NCBI GenBank assembly: GCA_043798915.1
Contig: JAZDOG010000051.1
Coordinates: forward strand, 1-11,552
Source: Pseudomonadota bacterium
GTDB taxonomy: Bacteria > UBA10199 > 2-02-FULL-44-16 > JAAZCA01
Length of the DNA stretch: 11,552 bases
Direction of reading: 5' to 3'
Part shown: in pieces, positions 1 to 11,551 of the stretch
Position numbering within the stretch: the stretch's first letter is position 1
Layout: each line of letters starts with the position of its first letter
The notes under the pieces: generated by a model
What the model was told of the DNA's origin: nothing
Database searches by the model: none
Seen by the model: only the letters and a program-made list of their open reading frames with translations
Position numbers and translations under genes: made by a program

Positions 1-896
1 TCGATCGCCGCCATGCAGCCGCTGCCTGCCGCAGTGATCGCCTGCCGATAGATGTGATCCTGGCAGTCGCCGGCGGCGAAGACGCCTGGCACGGAGGTTG
101 CCATCGAGGACTTGAGCGTTTTGATGTAGCCTGGCTCGTCCATATCGAGCTTGCCGCGGAATATCCCGGTGTTCGGCCTGTGGCCTATCGCGATGAAGAC
201 ACCCTCGCATGACAGCTTCCTCGTCGCGCCGGATTTCGTGTCCTTGAGCAGCAGCCCGGTAACCGAGGCTTTCGACACGTCGAGTATCTCCTCGACCACG
301 GAGTTCCATGCGAAGCCGATCTTCTGGTTTGCCCTGGCGCGGTCCTGCATGATCTTCGAGGCGCGGAGTTCGTCGCGGCGGTGGACTACCGTGACCTTCG
401 CCGCGAACCTCGTTAGAAAGAGAGCCTCTTCGATGGCGGTGTCGCCGCCGCCGACGACCGCCACCTCTTTGCCGCGGAAGAAGAAACCGTCGCACGTGGC
501 GCAGGCGGAGACGCCCTTGCCCAGAAGCTTTGTCTCCGACTCGATCCCCAGCCACATGGCCGTCGCCCCCGTGGCGACGATGAGCGCCCTGGCCTCCAGG
601 CGGCCGCCATCGGTATCGACGAAAAATGGGCGTCTGGAGAGATCCACGGCGCTGACTTTTCCGGCGATGAACTTCGTGCCGAAGCGCTCCGCCTGCTGGC
701 GCATCTGCGTCATGAGCTCCGGTCCGGCGATTGGATCGCGGAAACCTGGAAAGTTCTCGACATCGGACGTGATCGTGAGCTGGCCGCCGGGTTCCAGACC
801 CTCCACGATCACGGGATTCAAGTCGGCGCGCGCCGTGTAGATGGCTGCCGTAAGGCCTGCCGCCCCCGAGCCGAGTATTATAATATCGTGCGCCAT
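1..896 (-). CDS. trxB: Thioredoxin-disulfide reductase (3' end runs off the left edge; absent from the supplied ORF track)
   Basis: Manual minus-strand translation from ATG at 896 (GGAGGA SD at 906-901) gives [24 protein letters not shown] (FAD-binding), [17 protein letters not shown], the active site [12 protein letters not shown] (CATC at 503-492), [17 protein letters not shown] (NADPH) and [27 protein letters not shown] at the edge. Confidence 0.97.
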
Positions 897-939
897 TCAA
901 TCCTCCCCGGCTGGATATGCAAAATTTTTAGAAGTTTCC

Positions 940-1860
940 CTAGAAAAGCGGTGCGGGTTCGAAATGTGACAGCAGCCTGAATATGTCGAATCTCTGCGCG
1001 ATCTCGGAATGAGTCAGGCTGCGCAGGCGGTCCAGTCCAAAATCCTCCACCTGGAAAGAGGCCATGACGCTGCCGCAGATGACGGCGCGCTTCTGCGTGG
1101 CCTCCTCAATATCTCCCTGGCTTGCGATGTAGCCCAAAAACCCGCCGGCAAAGGTGTCGCCGGCGCCTGTGGGATCGGTGATCCTGGTGAGAGGCAGGCC
1201 CGGCGCAGCGAACACGTGTTCCTCCGAGAAAAGCAGCGCTCCATGCTCTCCGCGCTTGACCACCACGATGCGCGGCCCCCACCCCTGGATCCGCCGCGCG
1301 GCGAGCGTGACGTTCTTCTCGCCCGTCAGAAGCCTGGCCTCCCCGTCGTTGACGAAGACGAGGTCTGCGCGTTCGATCACCCTCTGGAGCGCGTCGCGCT
1401 CCGTGTTGATCCACAGATTCATCGTGTCCATGGCCACGAGCCGGGGCCTCTCCATCTGGTTCAAGACCTTGAGCTGCAACTGGGGATGGATGTTGGCGAG
1501 AAAAAGGTATGGCCGCTGGCGATGCATCTCCGACAGCTCAGGGTCGAAAGTGGCGAAGACGCCGAGGTGCGTGTCGAGCGTCTCGGCGCTGTTCAAGTCG
1601 TTGAGATAATGCCCGGACCACTTGAACGTCTCCCCTCCTGCGACGACCTTGAGGCCAGAGACGTCTATGCCGCGCCCTTCCAGAAACTCGACGTGGGCCG
1701 GATCGAAATCGCAGCCGACGACGCCCACGATGTAGACCTTGGTGAAGAAGCTGGCGGCTGTCGAGAAGTGCGTAGCCGCGCCGCCCAGGACTCTGTCGCG
1801 CTTGCCGGAGGGAGTCTCAAGGTTGTCGTACGCAACTGAACCTACGACGAGTATGCTCAT
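940..1860 (-). CDS. PfkB/ribokinase-family carbohydrate or nucleoside kinase
   Basis: N-terminal ILVVGSVAYD and LGGAA, NxxE motif (NDGE), VVKRGEHGA, and the PfkB signature DPTGAGDTFAGG. Start placed at ATG 1860 (GGAGG at 1869-1865) rather than 1890, which would overlap mtnP. Substrate cannot be determined. Confidence 0.92.
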   Translation of the reverse strand: MSILVVGSVAYDNLETPSGKRDRVLGGAATHFSTAASFFTKVYIVGVVGCDFDPAHVEFLEGRGIDVSGLKVVAGGETFKWSGHYLNDLNSAETLDTHLGVFATFDPELSEMHRQRPYLFLANIHPQLQLKVLNQMERPRLVAMDTMNLWINTERDALQRVIERADLVFVNDGEARLLTGEKNVTLAARRIQGWGPRIVVVKRGEHGALLFSEEHVFAAPGLPLTRITDPTGAGDTFAGGFLGYIASQGDIEEATQKRAVICGSVMASFQVEDFGLDRLRSLTHSEIAQRFDIFRLLSHFEPAPLF

Positions 1861-1870
1861 GGTGCCTCCA

Positions 1871-2734
1871 TCACTTGAAATATTTTCCAATTATCGGCTT
1901 GAGCCGGATCTTTGCGGTGTCTGGAATCTCCGCGCGGTCGGTGATGATCGCGTCCTTCAGGGCGCTCCTGCAGGGACAGCCCTCTCCGCAGGCAAGGCCG
2001 GGCAGCATCTCGCGGATGACCCCCTGGGCCTTAGCCACGTTCTCCTGCAGAATTCTGATCACCATCGCGACATCCACCGACTCCTCGGAGACGCGCCAGC
2101 AATCGTAGTCGGTGGCGAGCGCAATCGTGGCGTAGCAGATTTCGGCCTCGCGGGCGAGCCTGGCCTCCTGATAATTCGTCATGCCTATCACATCGACGCC
2201 CCACGAGCGGTAGACGTTCGATTCCGCGCGCGAAGAGAACATCGGCCCTTCGATGCAGACGTAGGCGCCGCCGTCGTGCACCTCCACGCCCATCTTCTTC
2301 GCCGCGGCCGCGGCCGCCGTCTTGAGCCTCGCGCACACGGGATCGGCAAAGCTCACGTGGGCGGCGATGCCATCGCCAAAGAAGGTCTGCGTCCGGCCCT
2401 TGGTCATGTCGATGAACTGGTCCACGATGACCAGCTGCCCGGGCTTTATCTTCTCCTTCATGCTGCCCACGGCCGAGACGGAGATTATGTTCGTGACGCC
2501 CAGCTCCTTTAGCGCATAGATGTTCGCGCGATAGTTGATCTCGTGCGGGAGGATTCTATGCCCGCGGCCATGGCGGGGCAGGAAAACGACATCCGTCCCG
2601 CCGAGGCTGCCAAGGACGATGGCATCGGAGGGCTTGCCAAAAGGCGTCTCGACCTGCCTCTCTTCGGTGACGCGCACGCCGCCCATCTGATAGAGCCCGC
2701 TGCCGCCGATTATGCCTGTGAGTTCTCGCGCCAT
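1871..2734 (-). CDS. mtnP: S-methyl-5'-thioadenosine phosphorylase (PNP/MTAP family)
   Basis: GIIGGSGLY, TPFGKPSD, FLPRHGRGH, NYRANIYALK, SAVGSM, EGPMFSSRAES, VIGMT, EARLAREAEICY and ATDYDCW; the DYD motif is typical of 6-aminopurine-specific MTAP. Start placed at ATG 2734 (MARELTGIIGG), preceded by AAAGGCGG. Confidence 0.94.
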   Translation of the reverse strand: MARELTGIIGGSGLYQMGGVRVTEERQVETPFGKPSDAIVLGSLGGTDVVFLPRHGRGHRILPHEINYRANIYALKELGVTNIISVSAVGSMKEKIKPGQLVIVDQFIDMTKGRTQTFFGDGIAAHVSFADPVCARLKTAAAAAAKKMGVEVHDGGAYVCIEGPMFSSRAESNVYRSWGVDVIGMTNYQEARLAREAEICYATIALATDYDCWRVSEESVDVAMVIRILQENVAKAQGVIREMLPGLACGEGCPCRSALKDAIITDRAEIPDTAKIRLKPIIGKYFK

Positions 2735-2806
2735 TAAGCCGCCTTTCGGTCCAAGTGAAACCCGCCGTTTAAAGCATATGAGCCGTCCCTTTTCAAGTGA
2801 TTCCGT

Positions 2807-2835
2807 TTGACCCCCATGGGGGCCTCGTGTATTCA
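2807..2835 (+). promoter_or_regulatory. Candidate sigma70-type promoter for the oxidoreductase/radical SAM cassette, overlapped by a perfect 12-bp palindrome
   Basis: TTGACC (2807-2812), 17-nt spacer, TATTCA (2830-2835), within the divergent intergenic region. Palindrome CCCCCATGGGGG at 2811-2822. The -10 box lacks the conserved final T. Confidence 0.35.
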
Positions 2836-2841
2836 CGCGGC

Positions 2842-3726
2842 GTGAAGAGATGCGATGTGGCTATCATAGGGGCCGGGCCGGCGGGCATTGCGGCTGCAAT
2901 ACAGCTCGCCCGGCAGGGTTTAAGGCCGCATATCCTCGAAAGAGGCGAACCCGGCGGCCTGCTCAGGAACGCGAACCTCGTGGAGAACTATCCCGGGTTT
3001 CCCGGCGGCATCAGCGGACCTGCCCTTGCCGCCCTCTTCCGGAGGCAGCTCTCCGATGCGGGCATACAGATCACCGCAGAGGAAGTGACAGGACTCGATC
3101 ATGACGGCGATGTGTTTGAGATCGAGACAGCATGGGAGTCGTATCGGAGCACGGCGGCCATCGTCGCATCCGGCACGGCGCCGATGGAGTCCAAATCCGT
3201 TCCGATACCCTCCGATGCCGCGGACCGCATCCTCTATGAGGTCTGCCCGATCGCGAACGTCGCGGGCAAAAGGATCGCGATCGTCGGCGCCGGCGACGCG
3301 GCATTTGACTACGCACTGAACCTGGCCAAGCGCAACGAAGTGACAATTCTCAGCAGGGGCAAGGAGACAAAATGCCTGCCGCTGCTCAAAGAACGCGCGC
3401 GGGGCACAGCAGCAATCTCCTATATGGAAAACATGGAAGTTGTGAAAATATCGCGCACACAGGGACAGGGTGAGGGTGACAACGTACTCGCAATAGAATG
3501 CCGCGGTGCCGGAGCGATTTTAGCTGATTATCTCCTGTTCGCAATCGGCCGCGAACCACGGCTGTCTTTTATATCGGAGGGGTTCGCCGGCAGGTCGCGC
3601 GAGCTCGAAGCGGCCGGCCTCCTGCATTTCGCCGGCGACGTAAAGAACGGGAACCTGAGGCAGACGGCCATCGCAACAGGAGATGGAATCAAAGCGGCGA
3701 TGAGGATAGCGCAGGCGCTTGCATGA
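2842..3726 (+). CDS. NAD(P)/FAD-dependent oxidoreductase, thioredoxin-reductase-like fold, lacking CxxC
   Basis: DVAIIGAGPAGIAAA, PGGLLRNANLVENYPGFP, IVASGT, the second Rossmann motif IAIVGAGDAAFDYA, LFAIGREP, FAGDV and RQTAIATGDGIKAA are all TrxB-like. Where TrxB has SACATCDG this protein has ILYEVCPI. Start placed at GTG 2842, just before the first Rossmann strand; the ORF track start of 2797 is possible but less likely. Confidence 0.88.
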   Translation: MKRCDVAIIGAGPAGIAAAIQLARQGLRPHILERGEPGGLLRNANLVENYPGFPGGISGPALAALFRRQLSDAGIQITAEEVTGLDHDGDVFEIETAWESYRSTAAIVASGTAPMESKSVPIPSDAADRILYEVCPIANVAGKRIAIVGAGDAAFDYALNLAKRNEVTILSRGKETKCLPLLKERARGTAAISYMENMEVVKISRTQGQGEGDNVLAIECRGAGAILADYLLFAIGREPRLSFISEGFAGRSRELEAAGLLHFAGDVKNGNLRQTAIATGDGIKAAMRIAQALA

Positions 3727-4676
3727 AAATCATCGCATCCACAGGCAGGGATGACCTCGCGACAGTCTACATCGCTGAGATGGGCGACAGCAGGCGCGTG
3801 GAGTTCGTCGAATCCGTGCAGCCCCCCCTCCCGCGCGAAAAAAAATGGGTGCTGATAATCTCCACCATGTTTGGCTGTCCCGCAGGCTGCCTCATGTGCG
3901 ATGCGGGCGGCGACTATCACGGCACGCTCTCGCGGGAGGAGATCATCTCCCAGATCGACTTTCTCGTGGACAGGCGCTGGGCCGGGAGAAAGGTCCCGTG
4001 CGAGAAATTCAAGATCCAGTTCGCGAGACTCGGCGAGCCGTCGCTCAACCCTGCGGTCCTCGATGTGCTGGAAGAGCTGCCGGACCGTTACAACGCCCCG
4101 GGCCTCATGCCGTCCATATCCACAATCGCACCGGCAGGCGGGGAGGCCTTCTTCGAAAGGCTGCTCTCGATCAAGAGCAGGCTCTACAGCGAAGGCAGGT
4201 TTCAGATGCAGTTTTCATTGCACACGACGGATGAGTCGCTGCGCGGAAAGCTCATGCCCGTGAAGAAATGGAGTTTTGAGAATATCGCCGAATACGGCGA
4301 CAGATTTTATTCGGAGGGCGACCGAAAGATCGCGCTCAACTTTGCATTGGCAAAGGATGCGCCGGTCGAGCCCTGCATCCTTGCAGAATATTTCGATCCG
4401 GCAAAATTCCTTATCAAGATCACTCCGGTCAACCCGACGCACACGGCGGCAAAAAACAACATCTCATCCCTGCTGGACCCGCAGCTTCCAGACGCGGATC
4501 ATCCTCTGGCACGCGATCTCTGCGCCGCGGGTTTTGAAGTCATCGTGAGCCTCGGAGAGACGGAGGAAAACCTGATCGGCAGCAACTGCGGCCAATACCT
4601 GAGAAGGCACATCGAATCGAAGGATTCCATCGAAAACGGCTACACATATGGTTTGAGAATGCTACGCGCCGAATGA
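3723..4676 (+). CDS. RlmN/Cfr-like radical SAM protein of unknown function (atypical class A methylase-like)
   Basis: CxxxCxxC (CPAGCLMC, 3876-3899), LSREEIISQI, FARLGEP (compare MGMGEP), QFSLHTTDESLRGKLMP (compare ISLNATTDEARSQLMP in the adjacent RlmN), ITPVNP and C-terminal IGSNCGQ (compare AACGQL). ATGA overlap with the upstream stop at 3723-3726. Confidence 0.88.
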   Translation: MKIIASTGRDDLATVYIAEMGDSRRVEFVESVQPPLPREKKWVLIISTMFGCPAGCLMCDAGGDYHGTLSREEIISQIDFLVDRRWAGRKVPCEKFKIQFARLGEPSLNPAVLDVLEELPDRYNAPGLMPSISTIAPAGGEAFFERLLSIKSRLYSEGRFQMQFSLHTTDESLRGKLMPVKKWSFENIAEYGDRFYSEGDRKIALNFALAKDAPVEPCILAEYFDPAKFLIKITPVNPTHTAAKNNISSLLDPQLPDADHPLARDLCAAGFEVIVSLGETEENLIGSNCGQYLRRHIESKDSIENGYTYGLRMLRAE

Positions 4677-5687
4677 TGTCGCCAGCTGCCCGCACGCGGC
4701 GAGGATCTCCTGTCCGCGGCTGATCCGGACGTTGGCCTGAACGCCGCGCGACCTCAAGAAATCGCTCCATCGCTCAGAGGTCCCCTCCTCCGGCGCCTTG
4801 AGCCCGCTCCCCTCGAACGGATTGAATGGAATCAGGTTCACCTTCGCGCTGATTCCCTTCAGGAGCTCCACCAGCCTCGCCGCATCGCCGTCGGTGTCGT
4901 TTAAGCCTCCGATGAGGACATATTCAAACGTGATGCGATGGCGCGAGCGCTCCGAATACTTTCTGCATGATTCCATTATCTCTGCGATCGGATATCGGCG
5001 GTTTATCGGCATGAGCTGCGACCTCGCCTCGTCGGTCGTGGCATTCAGGGAGATGGCGATCTTTATGTCGAATTTCTCCGCGAATTTCTCGAGCTGGGGC
5101 AGGAGCCCCGCCGTGGAGAGCGTCAGCCTGCGCTTTGAAAATCCGAACGCGCGGCCGTCGAGCATCACCTCCACCGCGCTTGAAACCGCATCCAGATTCG
5201 CAAGCGGCTCGCCCATGCCCATGAGGACCACGTTGGTCACCGGGTCAGGATGAGCCCTCATCATCAGGGTGAGCTGGCCCAGTATCTCCCCTTGAGTCAG
5301 GTCGCGCACAAAACCCATGCCGGCGGTGCGGCAGAACGAGCAGCCCATGGCGCAGCCCACCTGCGTGGAGACGCACACCGTAGTGCGGCCGGCCCCCGTG
5401 GGCATGTAGACGCACTCGACCGCCCTTCCGTCTTTCGCCCGGCAGAGAAATTTTCTAGTCCCGTCTGAAGCCTCCTGCGTGCCGGCAATTTCCAGCGCGT
5501 CCATGACGAACCTTTCCTTCAGCGCGGACCTGACCGCTTTCGAAATATTGGTCATCTCGTCGAAGGAAGCGACGCGCGTTCTATAGAGCCATTCTATGAG
5601 CTGATCTGCGGCAAAGGCCCTGAGCCCAAACTCCGCGGCAAGGGAGGGAAAGAGGCCGAGCGGGATGTCGGTGATCGCTTCTGGCAT
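4662..5687 (-). CDS. rlmN: Dual-specificity RNA methyltransferase RlmN (23S rRNA m2A2503 / tRNA m2A37)
   Basis: N-terminal accessory domain (QLIEWLY...FDEMTNISKAVR), SDGTRKFL, CVSTQVGCAMGCSFC (resolving Cys plus cluster motif), NVVLMGMGEPLAN, TLSTAG, ITFEYVLIGGLND, VNLIPFNP and RGQEILAACGQL (methyl-carrier Cys). Confidence 0.95.
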   Translation of the reverse strand: MPEAITDIPLGLFPSLAAEFGLRAFAADQLIEWLYRTRVASFDEMTNISKAVRSALKERFVMDALEIAGTQEASDGTRKFLCRAKDGRAVECVYMPTGAGRTTVCVSTQVGCAMGCSFCRTAGMGFVRDLTQGEILGQLTLMMRAHPDPVTNVVLMGMGEPLANLDAVSSAVEVMLDGRAFGFSKRRLTLSTAGLLPQLEKFAEKFDIKIAISLNATTDEARSQLMPINRRYPIAEIMESCRKYSERSRHRITFEYVLIGGLNDTDGDAARLVELLKGISAKVNLIPFNPFEGSGLKAPEEGTSERWSDFLRSRGVQANVRISRGQEILAACGQLATSFGA

Positions 5688-5693
5688 GGCGGG

Positions 5694-6389
5694 TTATCGA
5701 TCGGCAAAGATATCGAGCTTCGGGAGTTCTACCGCCCGGCTGACGGTTATGCAATCCGCCTTGCCCTGCCGCCGGCCGTCCCGGTCGACGAGGATGGGCG
5801 TGAGCCCGGCGGCGCGCGCGCCCATGACGTCTACCTCGAAGAGGTCGCCGACATAGACCGATCCGGACGGCTTCGCCTGCATGATGTCCATCGCATGACT
5901 GAAGATCCGGCGGTCGGGCTTCGAGAAGCCTACCTCGCCGGAATCAATGACGGCGCCGAAGAAGTCCTCCAGCCGCGCGTGCTGGATGAGGCGTTTGATC
6001 TGCCCCTCCGCGTTGGATATGACGCCGAGCTTGAAGCCGCGGCCTCGGAACCAGTCGAGCATCTCCGGGGTCCCCTCATCCATCCGCGACCAGAAGAGAT
6101 GGCTGAAGGGGTGATTGCGCACCGCCTCGGCGATCGGCTTCACCATCTCGTCGTCGATCCCCAGCGAAACGAGCCATCTCCTGTTGATCTCCCACCAGAG
6201 CTCGTCGTGCGTGAGCCGACCCACCAGGCCCTCGTCGACGATCGAGCGCTTGACCGCCTCGTGCTTCACCTCGATCTCGGAGGCTGGCAGAGAGATGGAA
6301 AACCTCTGGGCGAGCAGCTCCTGAAGGAATTCATAGTTGAAGAAGAATAGCGTGTTGCCGATGTCGAAAAAAATCGTGTCGAATTGCAA
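5694..6389 (-). CDS. HAD-superfamily hydrolase/phosphatase (subfamily IA)
   Basis: Motif I FFDIGNTL, motif II GVISN, motif III GFSKPDRRIF and motif IV YVGDLFEVDVMGA. Start placed at TTG 6389 (GGAGGG at 6398-6393), immediately after the upstream stop at 6403; the ORF-track extension to 6617 overlaps the dehydrogenase gene. Confidence 0.9.
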   Translation of the reverse strand: MQFDTIFFDIGNTLFFFNYEFLQELLAQRFSISLPASEIEVKHEAVKRSIVDEGLVGRLTHDELWWEINRRWLVSLGIDDEMVKPIAEAVRNHPFSHLFWSRMDEGTPEMLDWFRGRGFKLGVISNAEGQIKRLIQHARLEDFFGAVIDSGEVGFSKPDRRIFSHAMDIMQAKPSGSVYVGDLFEVDVMGARAAGLTPILVDRDGRRQGKADCITVSRAVELPKLDIFADR

Positions 6390-6402
6390 GTTCCCTCCGT
6401 GA

Positions 6403-7767
6403 TCAGCGGCCGGTAAAATCATCCGCCCAGTTCTCAAGTTCGCCGATTGCGAATGCCACGTCGAGCACCGTGTACCGGCTGCGGATGCACATCGCGAACA
6501 TGATGGCATCACGAAACTCGTCGCGGCCGATGCCAAGTCGTGAATAATGCGCTTTTGCGCCGGCCCGGTCAAGCACGGCGCGGATATACTCCGCAGGCAT
6601 GAGATATGGGGCGACAACCCTTTTTATCCCGCTCCATTCCTTTTTTATACGCTGGACACCCTCCTCAAACGACTTCCTCGTCCCGCGTTTCTTCTCATAT
6701 TCCGACGCGACAGCGCCGCCGGCGCTACCGAAGAGCGACCGGCATTTTGAAAGAGCGACCTCCGACCTCTCCCACGCCGATGCGACGGCCCCCTGATCGA
6801 TATCGCGTTCATCGAGCGAGGCCAGTCTCTCGTAGAGGGCGGCCGTGGCGACGGTCGCCACGCCTACCTGCGCCCCGTGAAAGTCGGGCTCGCGCCCTTC
6901 TGCCAGCGCGCGCATGTCGAGGAAGTGCGAGATGAGGTGTTCCCCTCCCGACGCCGGCGCCGAGCTGCCCGCGATCACCATCGAGACGCCGGAGAAGATG
7001 AGGGCCTCGGCAAGCCCGGCGATCGCGCGAGGGTCGCGCATGCCTATGAGCGAGGCATCGCGGATATAGAGCTTTTCCAGATCGCGCGTGAGTTCGAACG
7101 GCCGCGGACAGAAATGCTCGCCGCGGATCAGGGATGCCAGCTTCCAGTCCGCATTGCAGACCGGCTTCGACATCACGTCGCCGAGCCCGGCCCTGATCAT
7201 ATCGATCGGAGCGCCGGAGAGCAGCCCGGTATCGGCGATCACCGCGATAGCCGGACGCACGGCCTCCGTCGTCTTGAGACCGCCCCTGGTCAGAGCGACG
7301 ATCCCGGAGGCATAGCCGTTCATCGAAGGCGCGGTGGCCACCGCCACCTGCGGCAGGCCATGCGCAAACGCCGCCCACTTGGCGAGATCGGTGACAGTCC
7401 CGGATCCGACCGAGACGACGAGCGCATCGCCGGAATCGACGGCTCCCGCAACGAGTTCTGCGGTCGCGTCATCGGCATGCGGCTTTTTTCCCGGGATTAT
7501 AAACGGGCGCGACTTGAGACCGGCTTTTTCGATCGATCGGGCGACGTCCCGTCCCGCGAGGTCATGCGTCGTTTCATCGGCGACGATGAGCGCCAGGCCG
7601 CTGAGGCCCAGGCTTAAAATGACGTCCCCCGTCTTCCGGAGGGCCCCGTCCTCGATGAGCACGGCGCGCGTGCCGACGGAATGCCTCTGCCCGCACTCGC
7701 AGTCCCAGCTCTGCCCAAGCAGATTCTTTCGTTTGGATGGAATCGTCTCGTCCTTCAATAGCGCCAT
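6403..7767 (-). CDS. egsA: sn-glycerol-1-phosphate dehydrogenase, long bacterial AraM/EgsA type (dehydroquinate-synthase-like / Fe-ADH fold)
   Basis: N-terminal CECGQRH, LIVADETT, NAD-binding SVGSGTVTDLAK, ATAPSMNGYAS, MIRAGLGD, ADWKL, and metal-ligand motifs PASGGEHLISH and HGAQVG; 454 aa. Confidence 0.88.
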   Translation of the reverse strand: MALLKDETIPSKRKNLLGQSWDCECGQRHSVGTRAVLIEDGALRKTGDVILSLGLSGLALIVADETTHDLAGRDVARSIEKAGLKSRPFIIPGKKPHADDATAELVAGAVDSGDALVVSVGSGTVTDLAKWAAFAHGLPQVAVATAPSMNGYASGIVALTRGGLKTTEAVRPAIAVIADTGLLSGAPIDMIRAGLGDVMSKPVCNADWKLASLIRGEHFCPRPFELTRDLEKLYIRDASLIGMRDPRAIAGLAEALIFSGVSMVIAGSSAPASGGEHLISHFLDMRALAEGREPDFHGAQVGVATVATAALYERLASLDERDIDQGAVASAWERSEVALSKCRSLFGSAGGAVASEYEKKRGTRKSFEEGVQRIKKEWSGIKRVVAPYLMPAEYIRAVLDRAGAKAHYSRLGIGRDEFRDAIMFAMCIRSRYTVLDVAFAIGELENWADDFTGR

Positions 7768-7768
7768 G

Positions 7769-9115
7769 TCAGGCGGTCTTTGGCTTGGCCTTCCACATGA
7801 GCAAGGTCAAGAGCCCGCCGGCAAGCGCGCAGATGGCCCAGAACTTCGCGCCGCCTCCCCATCCCCATCTGTCGACGACCACGCCGGTTCCGGCGCTCGA
7901 CAATACGGCGCCCACATAGCCGAAGAGGCCGATGAAGCCCGTCGCGGATGCGGCCATTCGTTTCGACCCGAAGTCGACGCTCGCGACTCCAGCGATGAGA
8001 AGCTGCGGTCCATACGTGAAAAAACCTATGAGGCCCATCATGGTGAAATCGAGCACGGGGTGCCCGGGAGGGATCTTATAAAAGATGCAGATGCACGCCG
8101 CCAGCAGAAACATGCAGATGGCGGAAGCCGGACCGCGCCGGGCAGCGAAGAGCTTGTCGGAAACCCAGCCGGCGATGATCATGCCCAGAATTCCGACGAG
8201 GGGATTGGCTGCCGACATAAGCGCGCCCATCGAATCCGTATTGCCCTTCAGTTCCACCATGAGCTTTGGCGCCCAGTCATCGGCGCCAAAACGAACCACG
8301 TAGACGAATATGTTTATAAAAGCGCAGAGCCATATCCATTTATTAAAAAGCACCTTATGCAAAAAAGCCTGCCAGTAATGATGTTCATACTCCTCCTCTT
8401 CATGATCCTCCTCCGTATAATCGATATCCTTTTCCTTGTCGTATTTTTCGACCGGTGGAAGCCCCATCGCCTCAGGGCGGTCGCGCATGCGATTGTAGAG
8501 GAAGATGGAGGCCACAAAGCCGATAAATGCGGGGACGAAAAAACATGACCTCCATGAAAACTTGAGGATCAGCGCCGCGGTCAGGACGCGCACGAGCAGG
8601 GTGCCAACCTGATGCGCCGTCGACCACACGCCCCATATGCGGCCGCGCTCGTTGACGTTGAACCATTGCGCGAGCGCCCTGGCGTAGGGGGGATTGCCCA
8701 TCGATTGAAACCACCCGTTGAGCCCCCAGATAAACGCGAGCATGAAGAGGCTCGTGGCGTATCCGAAGAGCACGGAACAGACGACCGATCCGAACATGCC
8801 GATCACCGAGAAGTAACGAATATTGGCCCGATCCGCCAGCACGCCGTTGACGAATTTGCCAACGCCGTAGCTGATATAGAGCGCTGCGCCCAGGATGCCC
8901 AGCTGGGTGTTCGAGTAACCCAGATCGCGGCTCATCGCGGGCAACACCGTCGAGATATTCTTGCGCATCAGATAGAAAACGGCATAGCCGACGAAAGAGG
9001 CGTAACAGGTCCTCCAGCGCCAGTAACGGTACATCGACGCGACTTTTTGGGGATCGGTGATTTTCTCCGCCGCGGCGGGCGGCATCCTGAGTTCGGCCCA
9101 GATGCGCTTGAACAT
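7769..9115 (-). CDS. MFS transporter, organophosphate:Pi antiporter (OPA; GlpT/UhpT/UhpC/PgtP) family
   Basis: Multiple hydrophobic helices; YRYWRWR, FYLMRKN, YGVGKF, NGWFQSMG, ERGRIWGVWSTAHQVG, RDRPEAMGLPPVE, YVVRFG, GWVSDKLF..RRGP, YGPQLLI and ATGFIGLFGY. Purine-rich SD GAGGGGGGAG upstream of ATG 9115. Confidence 0.93.
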   Translation of the reverse strand: MFKRIWAELRMPPAAAEKITDPQKVASMYRYWRWRTCYASFVGYAVFYLMRKNISTVLPAMSRDLGYSNTQLGILGAALYISYGVGKFVNGVLADRANIRYFSVIGMFGSVVCSVLFGYATSLFMLAFIWGLNGWFQSMGNPPYARALAQWFNVNERGRIWGVWSTAHQVGTLLVRVLTAALILKFSWRSCFFVPAFIGFVASIFLYNRMRDRPEAMGLPPVEKYDKEKDIDYTEEDHEEEEYEHHYWQAFLHKVLFNKWIWLCAFINIFVYVVRFGADDWAPKLMVELKGNTDSMGALMSAANPLVGILGMIIAGWVSDKLFAARRGPASAICMFLLAACICIFYKIPPGHPVLDFTMMGLIGFFTYGPQLLIAGVASVDFGSKRMAASATGFIGLFGYVGAVLSSAGTGVVVDRWGWGGGAKFWAICALAGGLLTLLMWKAKPKTA

Positions 9116-9223: not shown

Positions 9224-11551
9224 CTACCTGCCTGTCACTGGCGGGCGCCGCATCTTCTTCCAATAATCGCCTGATTCCGTGACCTTCCCCACGAAGCCTT
9301 TGACTTTTTCAGGAGAGTCCGGAACAGGCCCTATGCCGTTCATCAAAATGAACTCGAACCAGTCCCGATGTTCTCTCCCGGTTTTCAGGAACCGCTCGGG
9401 GCGGTTTTTGTTTGCGTACATCGCCGCCGATCCCATGGCGAGCGCCTGTTCAACCACGGTGGCGTCGTCAAACGAAGTGGATTTTTTTTCGCCTTTGGAC
9501 CATCCCTCGAGCCTGTGTTTGGCCTCGGCGATGACTGCGCTGACTTTATTGTCCACATCTTCGGCCTGAGCAGCGGTGAGCTTGTCGCTGGCATAAAACT
9601 CCGCCAACGTCTTGTATGCGCCAGGGATCGGTTCAAACGGAGATTCGCCGTTGCGAGGACTGCCCGTCGCCCAGTCGATCGGCTCGTGCCAGTGCCAGGC
9701 CGAGGGCCCGCCGTGCCAGACTTTCGCAGCCACGTGGTGCTCAAGAAATCCTTCCAGATCTCCCGCGGCGGCTTTCGCGTATTTTTTCCTCCAGAATCCC
9801 TTCGAGGCATAGTGGGGATACCATTTGGTCACGAGCGGATCCAGAGTGTCGCGCCCCAGGGCGCGATCGAGAAACGTTGCCAATGGAGTGTCCCAGCCAG
9901 ACTTGAGTTTCACGAGGTTTCTAAGCGGCAGCGTCGTGAGCGAACGGACGAACGTCGACATTCCTATATTATAGCCATCTCCATCGAGAATATATCGATT
10001 GCCACCCCGAAAACCGTCCCATGCGGTTCCGATCAGCACGTCGTGGATGATGCAGTGCGCTAGCCAGCCTTTCCAGTTGGGTTTGACGCCAATCTTCATG
10101 GACTTGACCGAATGCTGTGCGAACACCTCTGAAAATGAACCACCCTCCCTCTCTATCATGCGCGCGATGACTTTCTTTTCCCATGGGGTCAATGCATTCT
10201 TCGACAGCAAGCCCCCCAGATATTCCTTTTCCTGAGGGGTCAATGGGAAGCCATTCTTCGATATCACATGCTTGACATTCTCCCTTTCCGCAGCGGTCAA
10301 TTTATCCCTCGATCGAAGGGCTTTCGCCTCCTCGCGGGTCAATGCTTTCCTCTTTACCAGGCGTCCAAGGGCCTCCTTTTCCGGAGGGGTCAATGCCTTC
10401 CTCTTTGCCAGGCGCGCAAAAAATTCCTTTTCCTCAGGGGTCGAAATGCCGCCCCTCCGCAGCAAACCCTTGACTGCATCCATTTCCCCAGCGGTCAATT
10501 TATCCCCCGATCGAAGGGCTGTCATTTCCGCAGGGGTCAATGCATCCATCGATGCCATGCGCGCACCAGCCTTCTTTTTTCCCCCGGCGGCCAGTACAGC
10601 CCTCGACACCAGGCGCTTTAAAGCCTGCCTTTCCTCAGCGGTCGGCTCGGCCCTCGATACCAGGCGCGCAGCGACCTTTTCTTTTCCTTCAGCGGCCAAT
10701 GCATCCCTCCACAGGACGCGCTCAAATATCCGCTTTTCCTCAGCAACGGCCAATGGATCAACCGATATAAGGCGCGAAAAAGCCTCCTGCTCCTCGGAGG
10801 TCAATGTCGCCACGACCCTCGCCTTCCTCACACTCCCTTCAACAACCCTTTTATATCCATCGCGGCCCTTCTTGAACTGGACGCCGACAAGCACCCGCCC
10901 CTCCCGGTCAAGGACCGTCACGTTCTCGTAATTTGCCCCCTGCATCAGCTTCCGCAGAAGGGATCTGTCCGGCCCGGTAAAATGCTCGAGCGCCAATTTC
11001 TCCGTCTCCCTTTGCCCCATCTTGAGGCCGATGGACTTGACCATGGCCTGTCCACGGAGCTTCGAAAGCCCATCGCGCAGCAAACGCCCGCGCCACTGAC
11101 CCAGGATCGACCCGGTGCCGTAGTTCGCCGCAAGGCGGTACATGTCGATCTCTTTAAGATCCTGGCCGCTCAGAAGCTGGGGGATGGCATCAGCGGCGCG
11201 GTCGAGGATGACCAGCATGCGCTGCCCGCCCTGATCCAGGCCTATTTTATAAGCGACGCGATTCATCGCGAACATCAGGGCGACCCCGCCCGCCCATGAC
11301 AGCGGCGGCTTATCATCCTTGTGTTCCCTGAACAACAGCTCCGCCCCGACATAAGGAACGCTTATCCTCTCGGCGTGTCTTATGATCGCATTTATAAATG
11401 TCAAAAGACCAAAACCCTTCCTCCAGCTTTGAAATTTGAGCGACCCATCCTCTGCTGCCCTCATTCCATGAATGATCAACTGACGGATCCAGAATGATTG
11501 CTTGAGTTCCGCTTCCGAAAGACGAGCTCCACCGGTGCCGAAGAGGAACCG
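9224..11551 (-). CDS. Large hypothetical protein (at least 775 aa, 5' end outside the window) with an internal degenerate helical repeat region
   Basis: The frame has no stop from the right edge (RFLFGTGGARLSEAELKQSFWIRQLIIHG...) to TAG at 9226-9224, so the ORF-track TTG start at 11479 is probably not the true start. Internal repeats all have lengths that are multiples of 3. No family recognised. Confidence 0.8.
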   Translation of the reverse strand, partial: RFLFGTGGARLSEAELKQSFWIRQLIIHGMRAAEDGSLKFQSWRKGFGLLTFINAIIRHAERISVPYVGAELLFREHKDDKPPLSWAGGVALMFAMNRVAYKIGLDQGGQRMLVILDRAADAIPQLLSGQDLKEIDMYRLAANYGTGSILGQWRGRLLRDGLSKLRGQAMVKSIGLKMGQRETEKLALEHFTGPDRSLLRKLMQGANYENVTVLDREGRVLVGVQFKKGRDGYKRVVEGSVRKARVVATLTSEEQEAFSRLISVDPLAVAEEKRIFERVLWRDALAAEGKEKVAARLVSRAEPTAEERQALKRLVSRAVLAAGGKKKAGARMASMDALTPAEMTALRSGDKLTAGEMDAVKGLLRRGGISTPEEKEFFARLAKRKALTPPEKEALGRLVKRKALTREEAKALRSRDKLTAAERENVKHVISKNGFPLTPQEKEYLGGLLSKNALTPWEKKVIARMIEREGGSFSEVFAQHSVKSMKIGVKPNWKGWLAHCIIHDVLIGTAWDGFRGGNRYILDGDGYNIGMSTFVRSLTTLPLRNLVKLKSGWDTPLATFLDRALGRDTLDPLVTKWYPHYASKGFWRKKYAKAAAGDLEGFLEHHVAAKVWHGGPSAWHWHEPIDWATGSPRNGESPFEPIPGAYKTLAEFYASDKLTAAQAEDVDNKVSAVIAEAKHRLEGWSKGEKKSTSFDDATVVEQALAMGSAAMYANKNRPERFLKTGREHRDWFEFILMNGIGPVPDSPEKVKGFVGKVTESGDYWKKMRRPPVTGR
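10145..10804 (-). repeat. Intragenic degenerate tandem repeat, about 13 units of 14-19 aa (42-57 nt), consensus LT(P/A)xE(K/R)xxhxRLhx(R/K)xA
   Basis: Recurrent plus-strand GG(T/C)CAAT core. Near-identical DNA pairs: 10291-10322 vs 10489-10520 (31/32, offset 198), 10336-10363 vs 10387-10414 (26/28, offset 51), 10599-10616 vs 10650-10667 (17/18, offset 51). Confidence 0.9.

Follow-up and report, generated by a model that had tools for sequence, protein, structure and literature searches.

The window analyzed here, an 11,552-nucleotide stretch of DNA that comprises positions 1-11,552 of contig JAZDOG010000051.1 (assembly GCA_043798915.1, Pseudomonadota bacterium), carries on its forward strand at 3723-4676 an intact open reading frame (ORF) for a short radical S-adenosylmethionine (SAM) enzyme of 317 amino acids that resembles RlmN and Cfr. 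We consider it probable, though far from certain, that this protein is the radical SAM subunit of a three-protein set (hereafter the cassette), in which a minimal RlmN/Cfr-type core works with a flavoprotein devoid of a CxxC motif and with a cysteine hydrolase, and that the most likely substrate of the set is a small metabolite and not RNA. The enzyme is the catalytic subunit of the cassette, and its family is an uncharacterized, widespread variant of a known enzyme class.

Solving the reaction would reveal how a covalent adduct or a thiyl radical can be resolved without a second cysteine, and it would also give a function to a gene set that is found across more than a dozen bacterial and several archaeal phyla.

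The radical SAM gene and its product

Direct reading of the DNA places the ATG start codon at 3723 and the TGA stop codon at 4674-4676. The start codon overlaps the stop codon of the upstream flavoprotein gene by four bases (ATGA), and the 3' end of the gene shares 15 bases with the end of a convergent rlmN gene (4662-5687, reverse strand). The CxxxCxxC motif (C52, C56 and C59; 3876-3899), which is the [4Fe-4S]/SAM site, is followed directly by a nearly invariant aspartate, Asp60. Near the C-terminus, the TGC codon at 4587-4589 specifies Cys289 within the sequence SNCGQ, which is homologous to the methyl-carrier cysteine of RlmN and Cfr. The ATA codon at 3855-3857 specifies Ile45 at the site of the second catalytic cysteine of RlmN (C118 of the Escherichia coli protein). 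ARLGEP is present where RlmN reads MGMGEP, and the family consensus is ARMGEP. The other cysteines of the protein are C93, C218 and C267.

The convergent gene codes for a canonical RlmN, which lies outside the cassette and serves as a comparator. Its product scores 380.2 bits with the NCBIfam RlmN model TIGR00048 (cut-off 290) and has the Pfam domains Radical_SAM and RlmN_N. The short protein scores 39.2 bits with TIGR00048, and with two further RlmN/Cfr models it reaches 29.3 bits (TIGR04432, cut-off 550) and 31.6 bits (NF000424, cut-off 530). The Pfam search of this protein returned a sub-threshold match to Radical_SAM as its only match, and RlmN_N (PF21016) was not found. Thus, the protein has the cluster motif and the C-terminal CGQ cysteine of RlmN, and it is without the second cysteine, the RlmN_N domain and a score above any of the curated cut-offs.

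In a BLASTP comparison, the protein and the neighboring RlmN share 24% identity across 216 columns (E 1e-9), and Ile45 is paired with the RlmN cysteine located seven residues ahead of the cluster motif. A more sensitive comparison by hhalign, using a profile built from 38 diverse family members, matches residues 7-296 of the short protein to residues 71-339 of RlmN (probability 99.3, E 1.2e-20). This alignment again pairs Ile45 with the RlmN cysteine, and it pairs Cys289 of SNCGQ with the cysteine of ACGQ in RlmN. The first-pass annotation, which was made from the sequence alone, had proposed that an isoleucine occupies the position of the resolving cysteine, that the cluster motif and Cys289 are intact, that MGMGEP has become ARLGEP and that the N-terminal accessory domain is missing. 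The DNA reading and both alignments agree with these proposals, and the start of the hhalign match at RlmN residue 71 fits the missing domain.

The only sequences in the PDB that were matched by the protein are those of Cfr (E 4.9e-5) and RlmN (E 0.03-0.04). An AlphaFold2 model built with an alignment is confident, with a predicted local distance difference test (pLDDT) score of 92.4 and a predicted template-modeling (TM) score of 0.90; a model built from the single sequence (pLDDT 44.9) was discarded. The best folds found by Foldseek for the confident model are 6fz6, RlmN and Cfr (E 1e-13 to 1e-7, TM scores 0.6-0.72), followed at about 1e-4 by pyruvate formate-lyase activase and spore photoproduct lyase. 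The structure 6fz6 is an ordinary relative of Cfr and RlmN; PMC12887959 mentions it as the molecular-replacement model for Cfr, with 37% identity.

A family that retains one of the two catalytic cysteines of RlmN

RlmN and Cfr are class A radical SAM methyl synthases that modify A2503 of 23S rRNA and A37 of tRNA, and to our knowledge methylases of this class are known only from RNA. In the review PMC9692996, class A methylases are defined by two conserved cysteines. One of these, C355, carries the methyl group, and the other, C118, is indispensable for resolution of the cross-link and is now seen as a general base that triggers radical fragmentation. PDB titles for C118A RlmN cross-linked to tRNA agree with a resolving role for this residue.

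Conservation was assessed with an alignment of 347 sequences, composed of the query, 269 database proteins (fragments and fusions included) and 77 ORFs from genomic loci. The column of Ile45 contains no cysteine in any of its 297 non-gap rows, which instead have leucine (139), isoleucine (91), methionine (31) and other residues. The cluster columns C52, C56 and C59 are 99-100% cysteine, and these residues are invariant in all 38 of the diverse members. Cysteine occupies the Cys289 column in 291 of 301 rows. No further column has more than 30% cysteine, and the share at the remaining cysteines of the protein is 18% for C93 and less than 10% for each of C218 and C267. The residues that are invariant in the family (G51, C52, C56, C59, G104, P106, P137, S165, R174, L205 and G270) are all present in the protein, as are the nearly invariant D60 and C289.

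The family is large. A word-indexed protein search yielded 5918 relatives at E <= 0.001 among 7612 candidates, and the best 120 of these database relatives are 60-66% identical to the query and about 315 amino acids in length. An exhaustive search of representatives at 50% identity yielded 875 sequences at E <= 0.001, of which 106 reach E <= 1e-30.

Judged by these sequence comparisons, the missing second cysteine is a trait of the family and neither a chance substitution nor the mark of a decayed allele, because position 45 never has a cysteine and no other column has a conserved one. As far as conservation can tell, the protein also carries no substitute cysteine. We describe the second cysteine as absent, since the word "lost" would presume a polarity. 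The first-pass annotation had suggested a check of whether absence of the C118 equivalent and retention of the CGQ cysteine extend to the whole family, and both do. Its alternative that homologs might retain the cysteine, leaving this copy a degenerate allele, does not apply. Its statement that the protein cannot run the standard RlmN/Cfr cycle also holds as written, given that C118 is described as indispensable in PMC9692996 and is absent throughout the family.

The flavoprotein and hydrolase partners

A scan of one genome per species gave 597 pattern matches, at least 551 of which were confirmed as relatives. The loci analyzed are the best 80 that were fetched (55-64% identity), for which relatives were sought with an alignment closer than the diverse one. 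Counts of gene neighbors refer to a set of 78 loci, consisting of 77 fetched loci plus the window; three loci (L029, L032 and L074) fell out of the ORF clustering.

Among the best 80 loci, the bacterial ones are from Chloroflexota, Thermodesulfobacteriota, Zixibacteria, Cloacimonadota, Fraserbacteria, Eisenbacteria, Latescibacterota, Fermentibacterota, Omnitrophota, Acidobacteriota, Planctomycetota, Bacillota and Aminicenantes, and the archaeal ones are from Thermoplasmata, Methanogenium sp. MK-MG, Methanobacteriota and Heimdallarchaeota. The remark in the first-pass annotation that similar short proteins occur in anaerobic archaea and bacteria with no assigned function is therefore accurate for many phyla. 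Source databases label cassette members as radical SAM proteins or hypothetical proteins, with one source calling them a 23S rRNA methyltransferase. We found no description of the cassette in the literature, in a search that missed most subscription journals.

The gene immediately upstream in the window (2797-3726, forward strand) codes for a flavoprotein with a thioredoxin reductase (TrxR) fold (Pfam Pyr_redox_2/3), with motifs for flavin adenine dinucleotide (FAD) and NAD(P)H and no CxxC. Translation probably begins close to codon 16 (about position 2842), where the family consensus starts. A gene of this pyridine-nucleotide-disulfide-oxidoreductase fold, about 295 codons in length, is located directly upstream of the radical SAM gene and on the same strand in 73 of the 78 loci. 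Another gene, coding for an isochorismatase-family protein of about 220 amino acids (PF00857, E 2e-37), lies upstream of the flavoprotein gene in 53 of the 78. By eye, its product has aspartate, lysine and cysteine residues at places that we take to be those of the catalytic triad of the family.

Both links are confirmed by natural fusions of each kind. Three proteins (P0128, P0140 and P0171) join an N-terminal flavoprotein to the radical SAM protein, and five (P0153, P0163, P0166, P0170 and P0179) join the radical SAM protein to the isochorismatase-family domain, a combination that also forms a cluster of 58 members in the ESM Atlas. The view in the first-pass annotation that the flavoprotein is a partner is thus strengthened by its position in nearly all loci, by the four-base gene overlap and by the fusions.

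A cysteine supplied in trans by the flavoprotein was considered as the resolving residue and is ruled out: none of its columns is invariantly cysteine among 74 members, and the best two have 78% and 58%. No substitute cysteine is therefore apparent from conservation in either partner. A complex prediction for the flavoprotein and the radical SAM protein gave a score of 0.00, which, having been run without controls, speaks neither for nor against binding.

A Pfam scan of 136 neighboring proteins and 23 cluster representatives revealed heterogeneous surroundings. Some neighbors recur in a lineage-specific manner, including folP (6 loci), a CooC-like ATPase (8), a MobA-like protein (7), DUF3786 (5), adenosine deaminase (5) and biotin genes (3-4). 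In three Fermentibacterota loci (L056, L072 and L079), the cassette is found after genes whose Pfam domains fit BioF, BioH, BioC, BioD and BioA.

More distant relatives are present in phages, where 23 records at 25-35% identity are located among replication and nucleotide genes. These include OR602862.1 (locus L095, 5836-6660), ON453897.1 (locus L094, 5833-6840) and 21 others. In Moorella phage MTATph1, a short radical SAM relative lies two genes from thymidylate synthase.

Proposed mechanism and substrate

In the mechanism that we propose for the three-protein set, SAM would first be cleaved reductively on the [4Fe-4S] cluster. Cys289, on a mobile C-terminal loop, would be the single catalytic thiol, serving as a relay for a hydrogen atom or, in the manner of RlmN, as a methyl/methylene carrier. 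The role of C118, which is the deprotonation that releases the adduct, would pass to a residue other than cysteine, for which the nearly invariant Asp60 is the candidate. The flavoprotein, drawing electrons from NAD(P)H, would return the cluster, the Cys289 thiyl radical or both to the reduced state, and the hydrolase, acting before or after the radical step, would split the substrate or the product at an amide or enol-ether bond. In RlmN, the thiyl radical of C355 needs a one-electron reduction, the source of which is not yet identified according to PMC9692996.

Several observations argue that the enzyme is not directed at RNA, namely the absence of RlmN_N, the acidic character of the family, coexistence with rlmN and a sister clade that is fused to the transporter QueT. 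A total of 65 of 78 family members are acidic, and the median isoelectric point is 5.77. Canonical rlmN genes that score over the cut-off are present in the genome of the window and in both of two other bacterial carriers checked, so the first-pass annotation was right that the protein does not replace RlmN. No rlmN over the cut-off was found in three archaeal carriers.

Some aspects of the data and of the proposal weigh against a three-protein set with a small-metabolite substrate. In 25 of the 78 loci the pair has no hydrolase gene beside it, in part because contigs end there, and the gene is unlinked in the genome of the window; thus, the hydrolase may not be obligatory for the cassette. 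The extended neighborhoods (136 neighbor proteins) are too heterogeneous to point to a pathway, and no riboswitch was found in the window plus 10 loci (146,078 bases), in which only a tRNA matched. Methyl carriage by Cys289 is proposed by homology with RlmN and Cfr, and the assignment of the base to Asp60 is a guess prompted by its conservation. The reduction of a radical SAM cluster by a flavin is thermodynamically demanding. Furthermore, the phage context may leave a nucleic acid or nucleotide as the substrate for parts of the superfamily.

Alternative and more specific functions

The alternative that survives best is a radical lyase or reductase that transfers no methyl group, which we regard as possible, with perhaps one chance to three against it. 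In such an enzyme, the 5'-deoxyadenosyl radical would take a hydrogen atom from the substrate, Cys289 would return one and the flavoprotein would re-reduce the resulting thiyl radical, with the QueT-fused clade being similar to QueL. One cysteine is enough for chemistry of this type, and a reductant partner fits it. In spore photoproduct lyase, which is among the next-best folds found by Foldseek, the product radical receives a hydrogen atom from the conserved cysteine. However, the strict SNCGQ sequence on the loop that holds the methyl carrier in RlmN and Cfr argues for the same role here.

Further support for a lyase comes from two QueT-fused relatives, P0235 and P0257, which keep the C-terminal cysteine and have no upstream cysteine. 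P0257 carries QueT (39.8 bits, cut-off 33.7) together with a nucleosidase for S-methyl-5'-thioadenosine (MTA) and S-adenosylhomocysteine (SAH), and the ESM Atlas has a cluster of 65 members labeled 'Phosphorylase/QueT/Radical SAM'. According to PMC11130926, PMC11477304, PMC12632869 and PMC11570991, the radical SAM enzyme QueL turns queuine into preQ1, and its gene adjoins a QueT-family transporter gene in Clostridioides difficile. The clade of P0235 and P0257 may therefore be of the queuine-lyase type.

Fusions to QueT are confined to relatives that share about 31% identity, and the enzyme in the window has neither QueT nor QueK as a neighbor. QueT/QrtT, QueK and the preQ1 riboswitch were all absent from the window and the loci examined. 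A queuosine gap in this genome was considered and is ruled out, since tgt and queC are both present over their cut-offs. A search with P0259 gave 6439 relatives and no informative names among the best 120. In a search for a QueL link among 339 genomes of the class that includes genome G046, there were four matches, none of which had an Rfam match at E <= 0.01.

A more specific version of the preferred reading, in which the set acts on a small metabolite, is suggested by folate genes. The cassette might provide a route to p-aminobenzoate, or to another precursor for dihydropteroate synthase (DHPS), that is independent of both oxygen and PabB. The one-cysteine enzyme would then perform chemistry new for class A, with the flavoprotein replacing the redox role of the missing cysteine. 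We put this forward tentatively and rate it as a little less probable than the lyase. If true, it would fill a long-standing gap, namely the source of p-aminobenzoate in anaerobes that have DHPS and no PabB.

The folP gene is located directly upstream of the cassette in six Dehalococcoidia-type loci, and a methylenetetrahydrofolate reductase gene is near the cassette in one Anaerolineae locus. The genome of the window has DHPS (334 bits) and chorismate synthase (333 bits). Its best match to the PabB model is 27 bits, with no TrpE/PabB-type chorismate-binding enzyme above this, and it seems to have neither tryptophan synthesis nor canonical p-aminobenzoate synthesis. Among 41 related genomes from the class to which the window belongs, PabB over the cut-off is found in 0 of 18 carriers of the radical SAM gene versus 15 of 23 non-carriers, and PabB matches of at least 270 bits are found in 0 of 18 versus 20 of 23. 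DHPS is over its cut-off in 39 of these 41 genomes.

The same pattern is seen for 45 carriers from many phyla, none of which has PabB over the cut-off; 32 have no match and 13 have one or two sub-cut-off matches. Of these 13, six have TrpE over its own cut-off, two have TrpE-like matches (452-490 bits), and in five the chorismate-binding proteins are divergent and their type is unclear. DHPS is over the cut-off in 42 of the 45. For all carriers pooled, DHPS is present in 59 of 63 and PabB over the cut-off in 0 of 63. The PabB cut-off is strict, with no more than 4 of 14 control genomes above it, and the phyletic counts come from related genomes that are not independent observations, many of them metagenome-assembled.

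A background sample of 151 genomes from a class of Chloroflexota provides a second comparison for the folate link. In this sample, the cassette is present in one genome (the one on which the sample is centered), PabB in 22 and DHPS in 67, all over their cut-offs. All 22 genomes with PabB also have DHPS, and 66 genomes in total have DHPS and no cassette. This leaves 44 genomes that have DHPS and neither PabB nor the cassette, and such genomes are a caveat on the folate reading.

We think it improbable, at roughly half the weight given to the folate route, that the enzyme is a nucleic acid methylase that modifies another site in RNA or DNA and resolves its adduct without a second cysteine. RlmN and Cfr are its closest characterized relatives by both sequence and fold, one source annotates members as 23S rRNA (adenine2503-C2)-methyltransferase and the phage homologs reside among DNA-metabolism genes. 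However, the enzyme has no RlmN_N domain, it scores far below every RlmN/Cfr cut-off and the family is mostly acidic. Moreover, it is linked to the flavoprotein and the hydrolase (obligatorily, and sometimes by fusion), the sister clade is fused to a small-molecule transporter, and the enzyme coexists with rlmN in bacteria while also occurring in archaea without rlmN over the cut-off.

Lastly, a functionless, decaying duplicate of rlmN, as might be supposed from the adjoining rlmN gene and from the absence of one catalytic cysteine and the N-terminal domain, is refuted by the 24% identity to the neighbor, the 5918 database relatives at E <= 0.001 (best 60-66% identity), the at least 551 genomic relatives, the family-wide cysteine pattern, the complete set of invariant residues and the confident model, and we give it almost no credence.

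Overall, the testable parts of the first-pass annotation have held up, but it had missed the cysteine hydrolase partner, the QueT-fused sister clade and the folate-related phyletic pattern.

The cassette in this genome

The window does not include a hydrolase gene beside the flavoprotein-radical SAM pair. Instead, a gene for S-methyl-5'-thioadenosine phosphorylase (1874-2836, reverse strand; TIGR01694, 326 bits versus a cut-off of 274.85) is located upstream and is divergent from the flavoprotein gene. This enzyme may clear adenosyl by-products. It is not a recurrent neighbor across the 78 loci, and other enzymes for by-products occur elsewhere, including the MTA/SAH nucleosidase fused in P0257 and the adenosine-deaminase-family neighbor in five loci. 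The phosphorylase gene forms an overlapping pair with a PfkB-kinase gene (together 943-2836, reverse strand) that is divergent from the cassette.

The only isochorismatase-family gene in the genome is a monocistronic gene on another contig (C68, positions 394-981, reverse strand; locus L093), where an ABC transporter gene lies alongside and no flavoprotein gene follows. Its product shares 51-58% identity with the hydrolases encoded within the operons of four relatives from the same family or order, and no more than 47.5% with those from the 80 loci. By these identities it is an unlinked ortholog, and the genome thus carries all three cassette genes.

The radical SAM gene is present in 18 of the 41 related genomes. 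Identity between the protein from the window and its counterparts in nine relatives is 47-55%, and it reaches 66% for proteins from other phyla. In a maximum-likelihood tree, provisional because only a quick search was made, it groups with the cross-phylum loci and with two relatives from the same order in a clade of 80 rows (support 100 by the Shimodaira-Hasegawa-like approximate likelihood ratio test, SH-aLRT), separate from a clade (support 95) that holds six other relatives. The identity patterns of the radical SAM protein and the hydrolase run in opposite directions, which suggests that the flavoprotein-radical SAM pair in this genome was acquired or exchanged horizontally and that the hydrolase is of the native type.

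Other features of the window

Three reverse-strand ORFs (6406-7767, 7772-9115 and 5697-6617) represent a glycerol-1-phosphate-dehydrogenase-like gene beside genes for an MFS transporter and a HAD hydrolase. The dehydrogenase-like product matches PF13685 and scores 200.8 bits with NF002022 (cut-off 413). The genome is apparently bacterial, and this protein may be an AraM/EgsA-type enzyme. An ORF of at least 775 codons (9224-11551, reverse strand) runs off the window and codes for many repeats resembling ALTPxEKxxLxRL. GC skew in the region 9224-11551 is strongly negative (-0.21 to -0.24).

Comparison with known systems

The second partner resembles thioredoxin reductase (TIGR01292) in its two-domain FAD/NAD(P)H fold and its GxGxxG motifs. 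However, it has no redox-active CxxC, and it scores 141.9 bits with this model against a cut-off of 343. A genuine thioredoxin reductase gene, whose product has the CxxC pair as CATC, is located at the start of the window (3-896, reverse strand).

The third partner shares PF00857 with isochorismatase-family cysteine hydrolases such as YecD/PRK11440, RutB, biuret hydrolase and nicotinamidase. Unlike these proteins, it is below every curated cut-off, with best scores of 73-81 bits versus 195.

QueL of C. difficile, compared here by description, possibly belongs to the same superfamily of RlmN-like proteins that have one cysteine and no N-terminal domain, and it acts on a small heterocycle. The clade of the enzyme in the window differs from QueL in its partners, which are a flavoprotein and a hydrolase and not QueT or QueK.

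The radical SAM protein itself is most similar to RlmN and Cfr (TIGR00048 and TIGR04432; PDB 3rfa, 5hr7, 9p0p and 6fz6). It has the radical SAM core fold with extra N-terminal beta strands, the CxxxCxxC motif, the GEP motif for SAM binding and a C-terminal loop with the CGQ cysteine. In contrast to RlmN and Cfr, it has neither the second catalytic cysteine (0 of 297 in the family) nor the RNA-binding domain RlmN_N, it scores 39 bits against cut-offs of 290-633, and its family has an obligate flavoprotein and a usual hydrolase partner and occurs in archaea that have no rlmN over the cut-off. Thus, a family that has the same scaffold with one of the two cysteines, and that is tied to flavoprotein and hydrolase partners, departs from the two-cysteine definition of class A.

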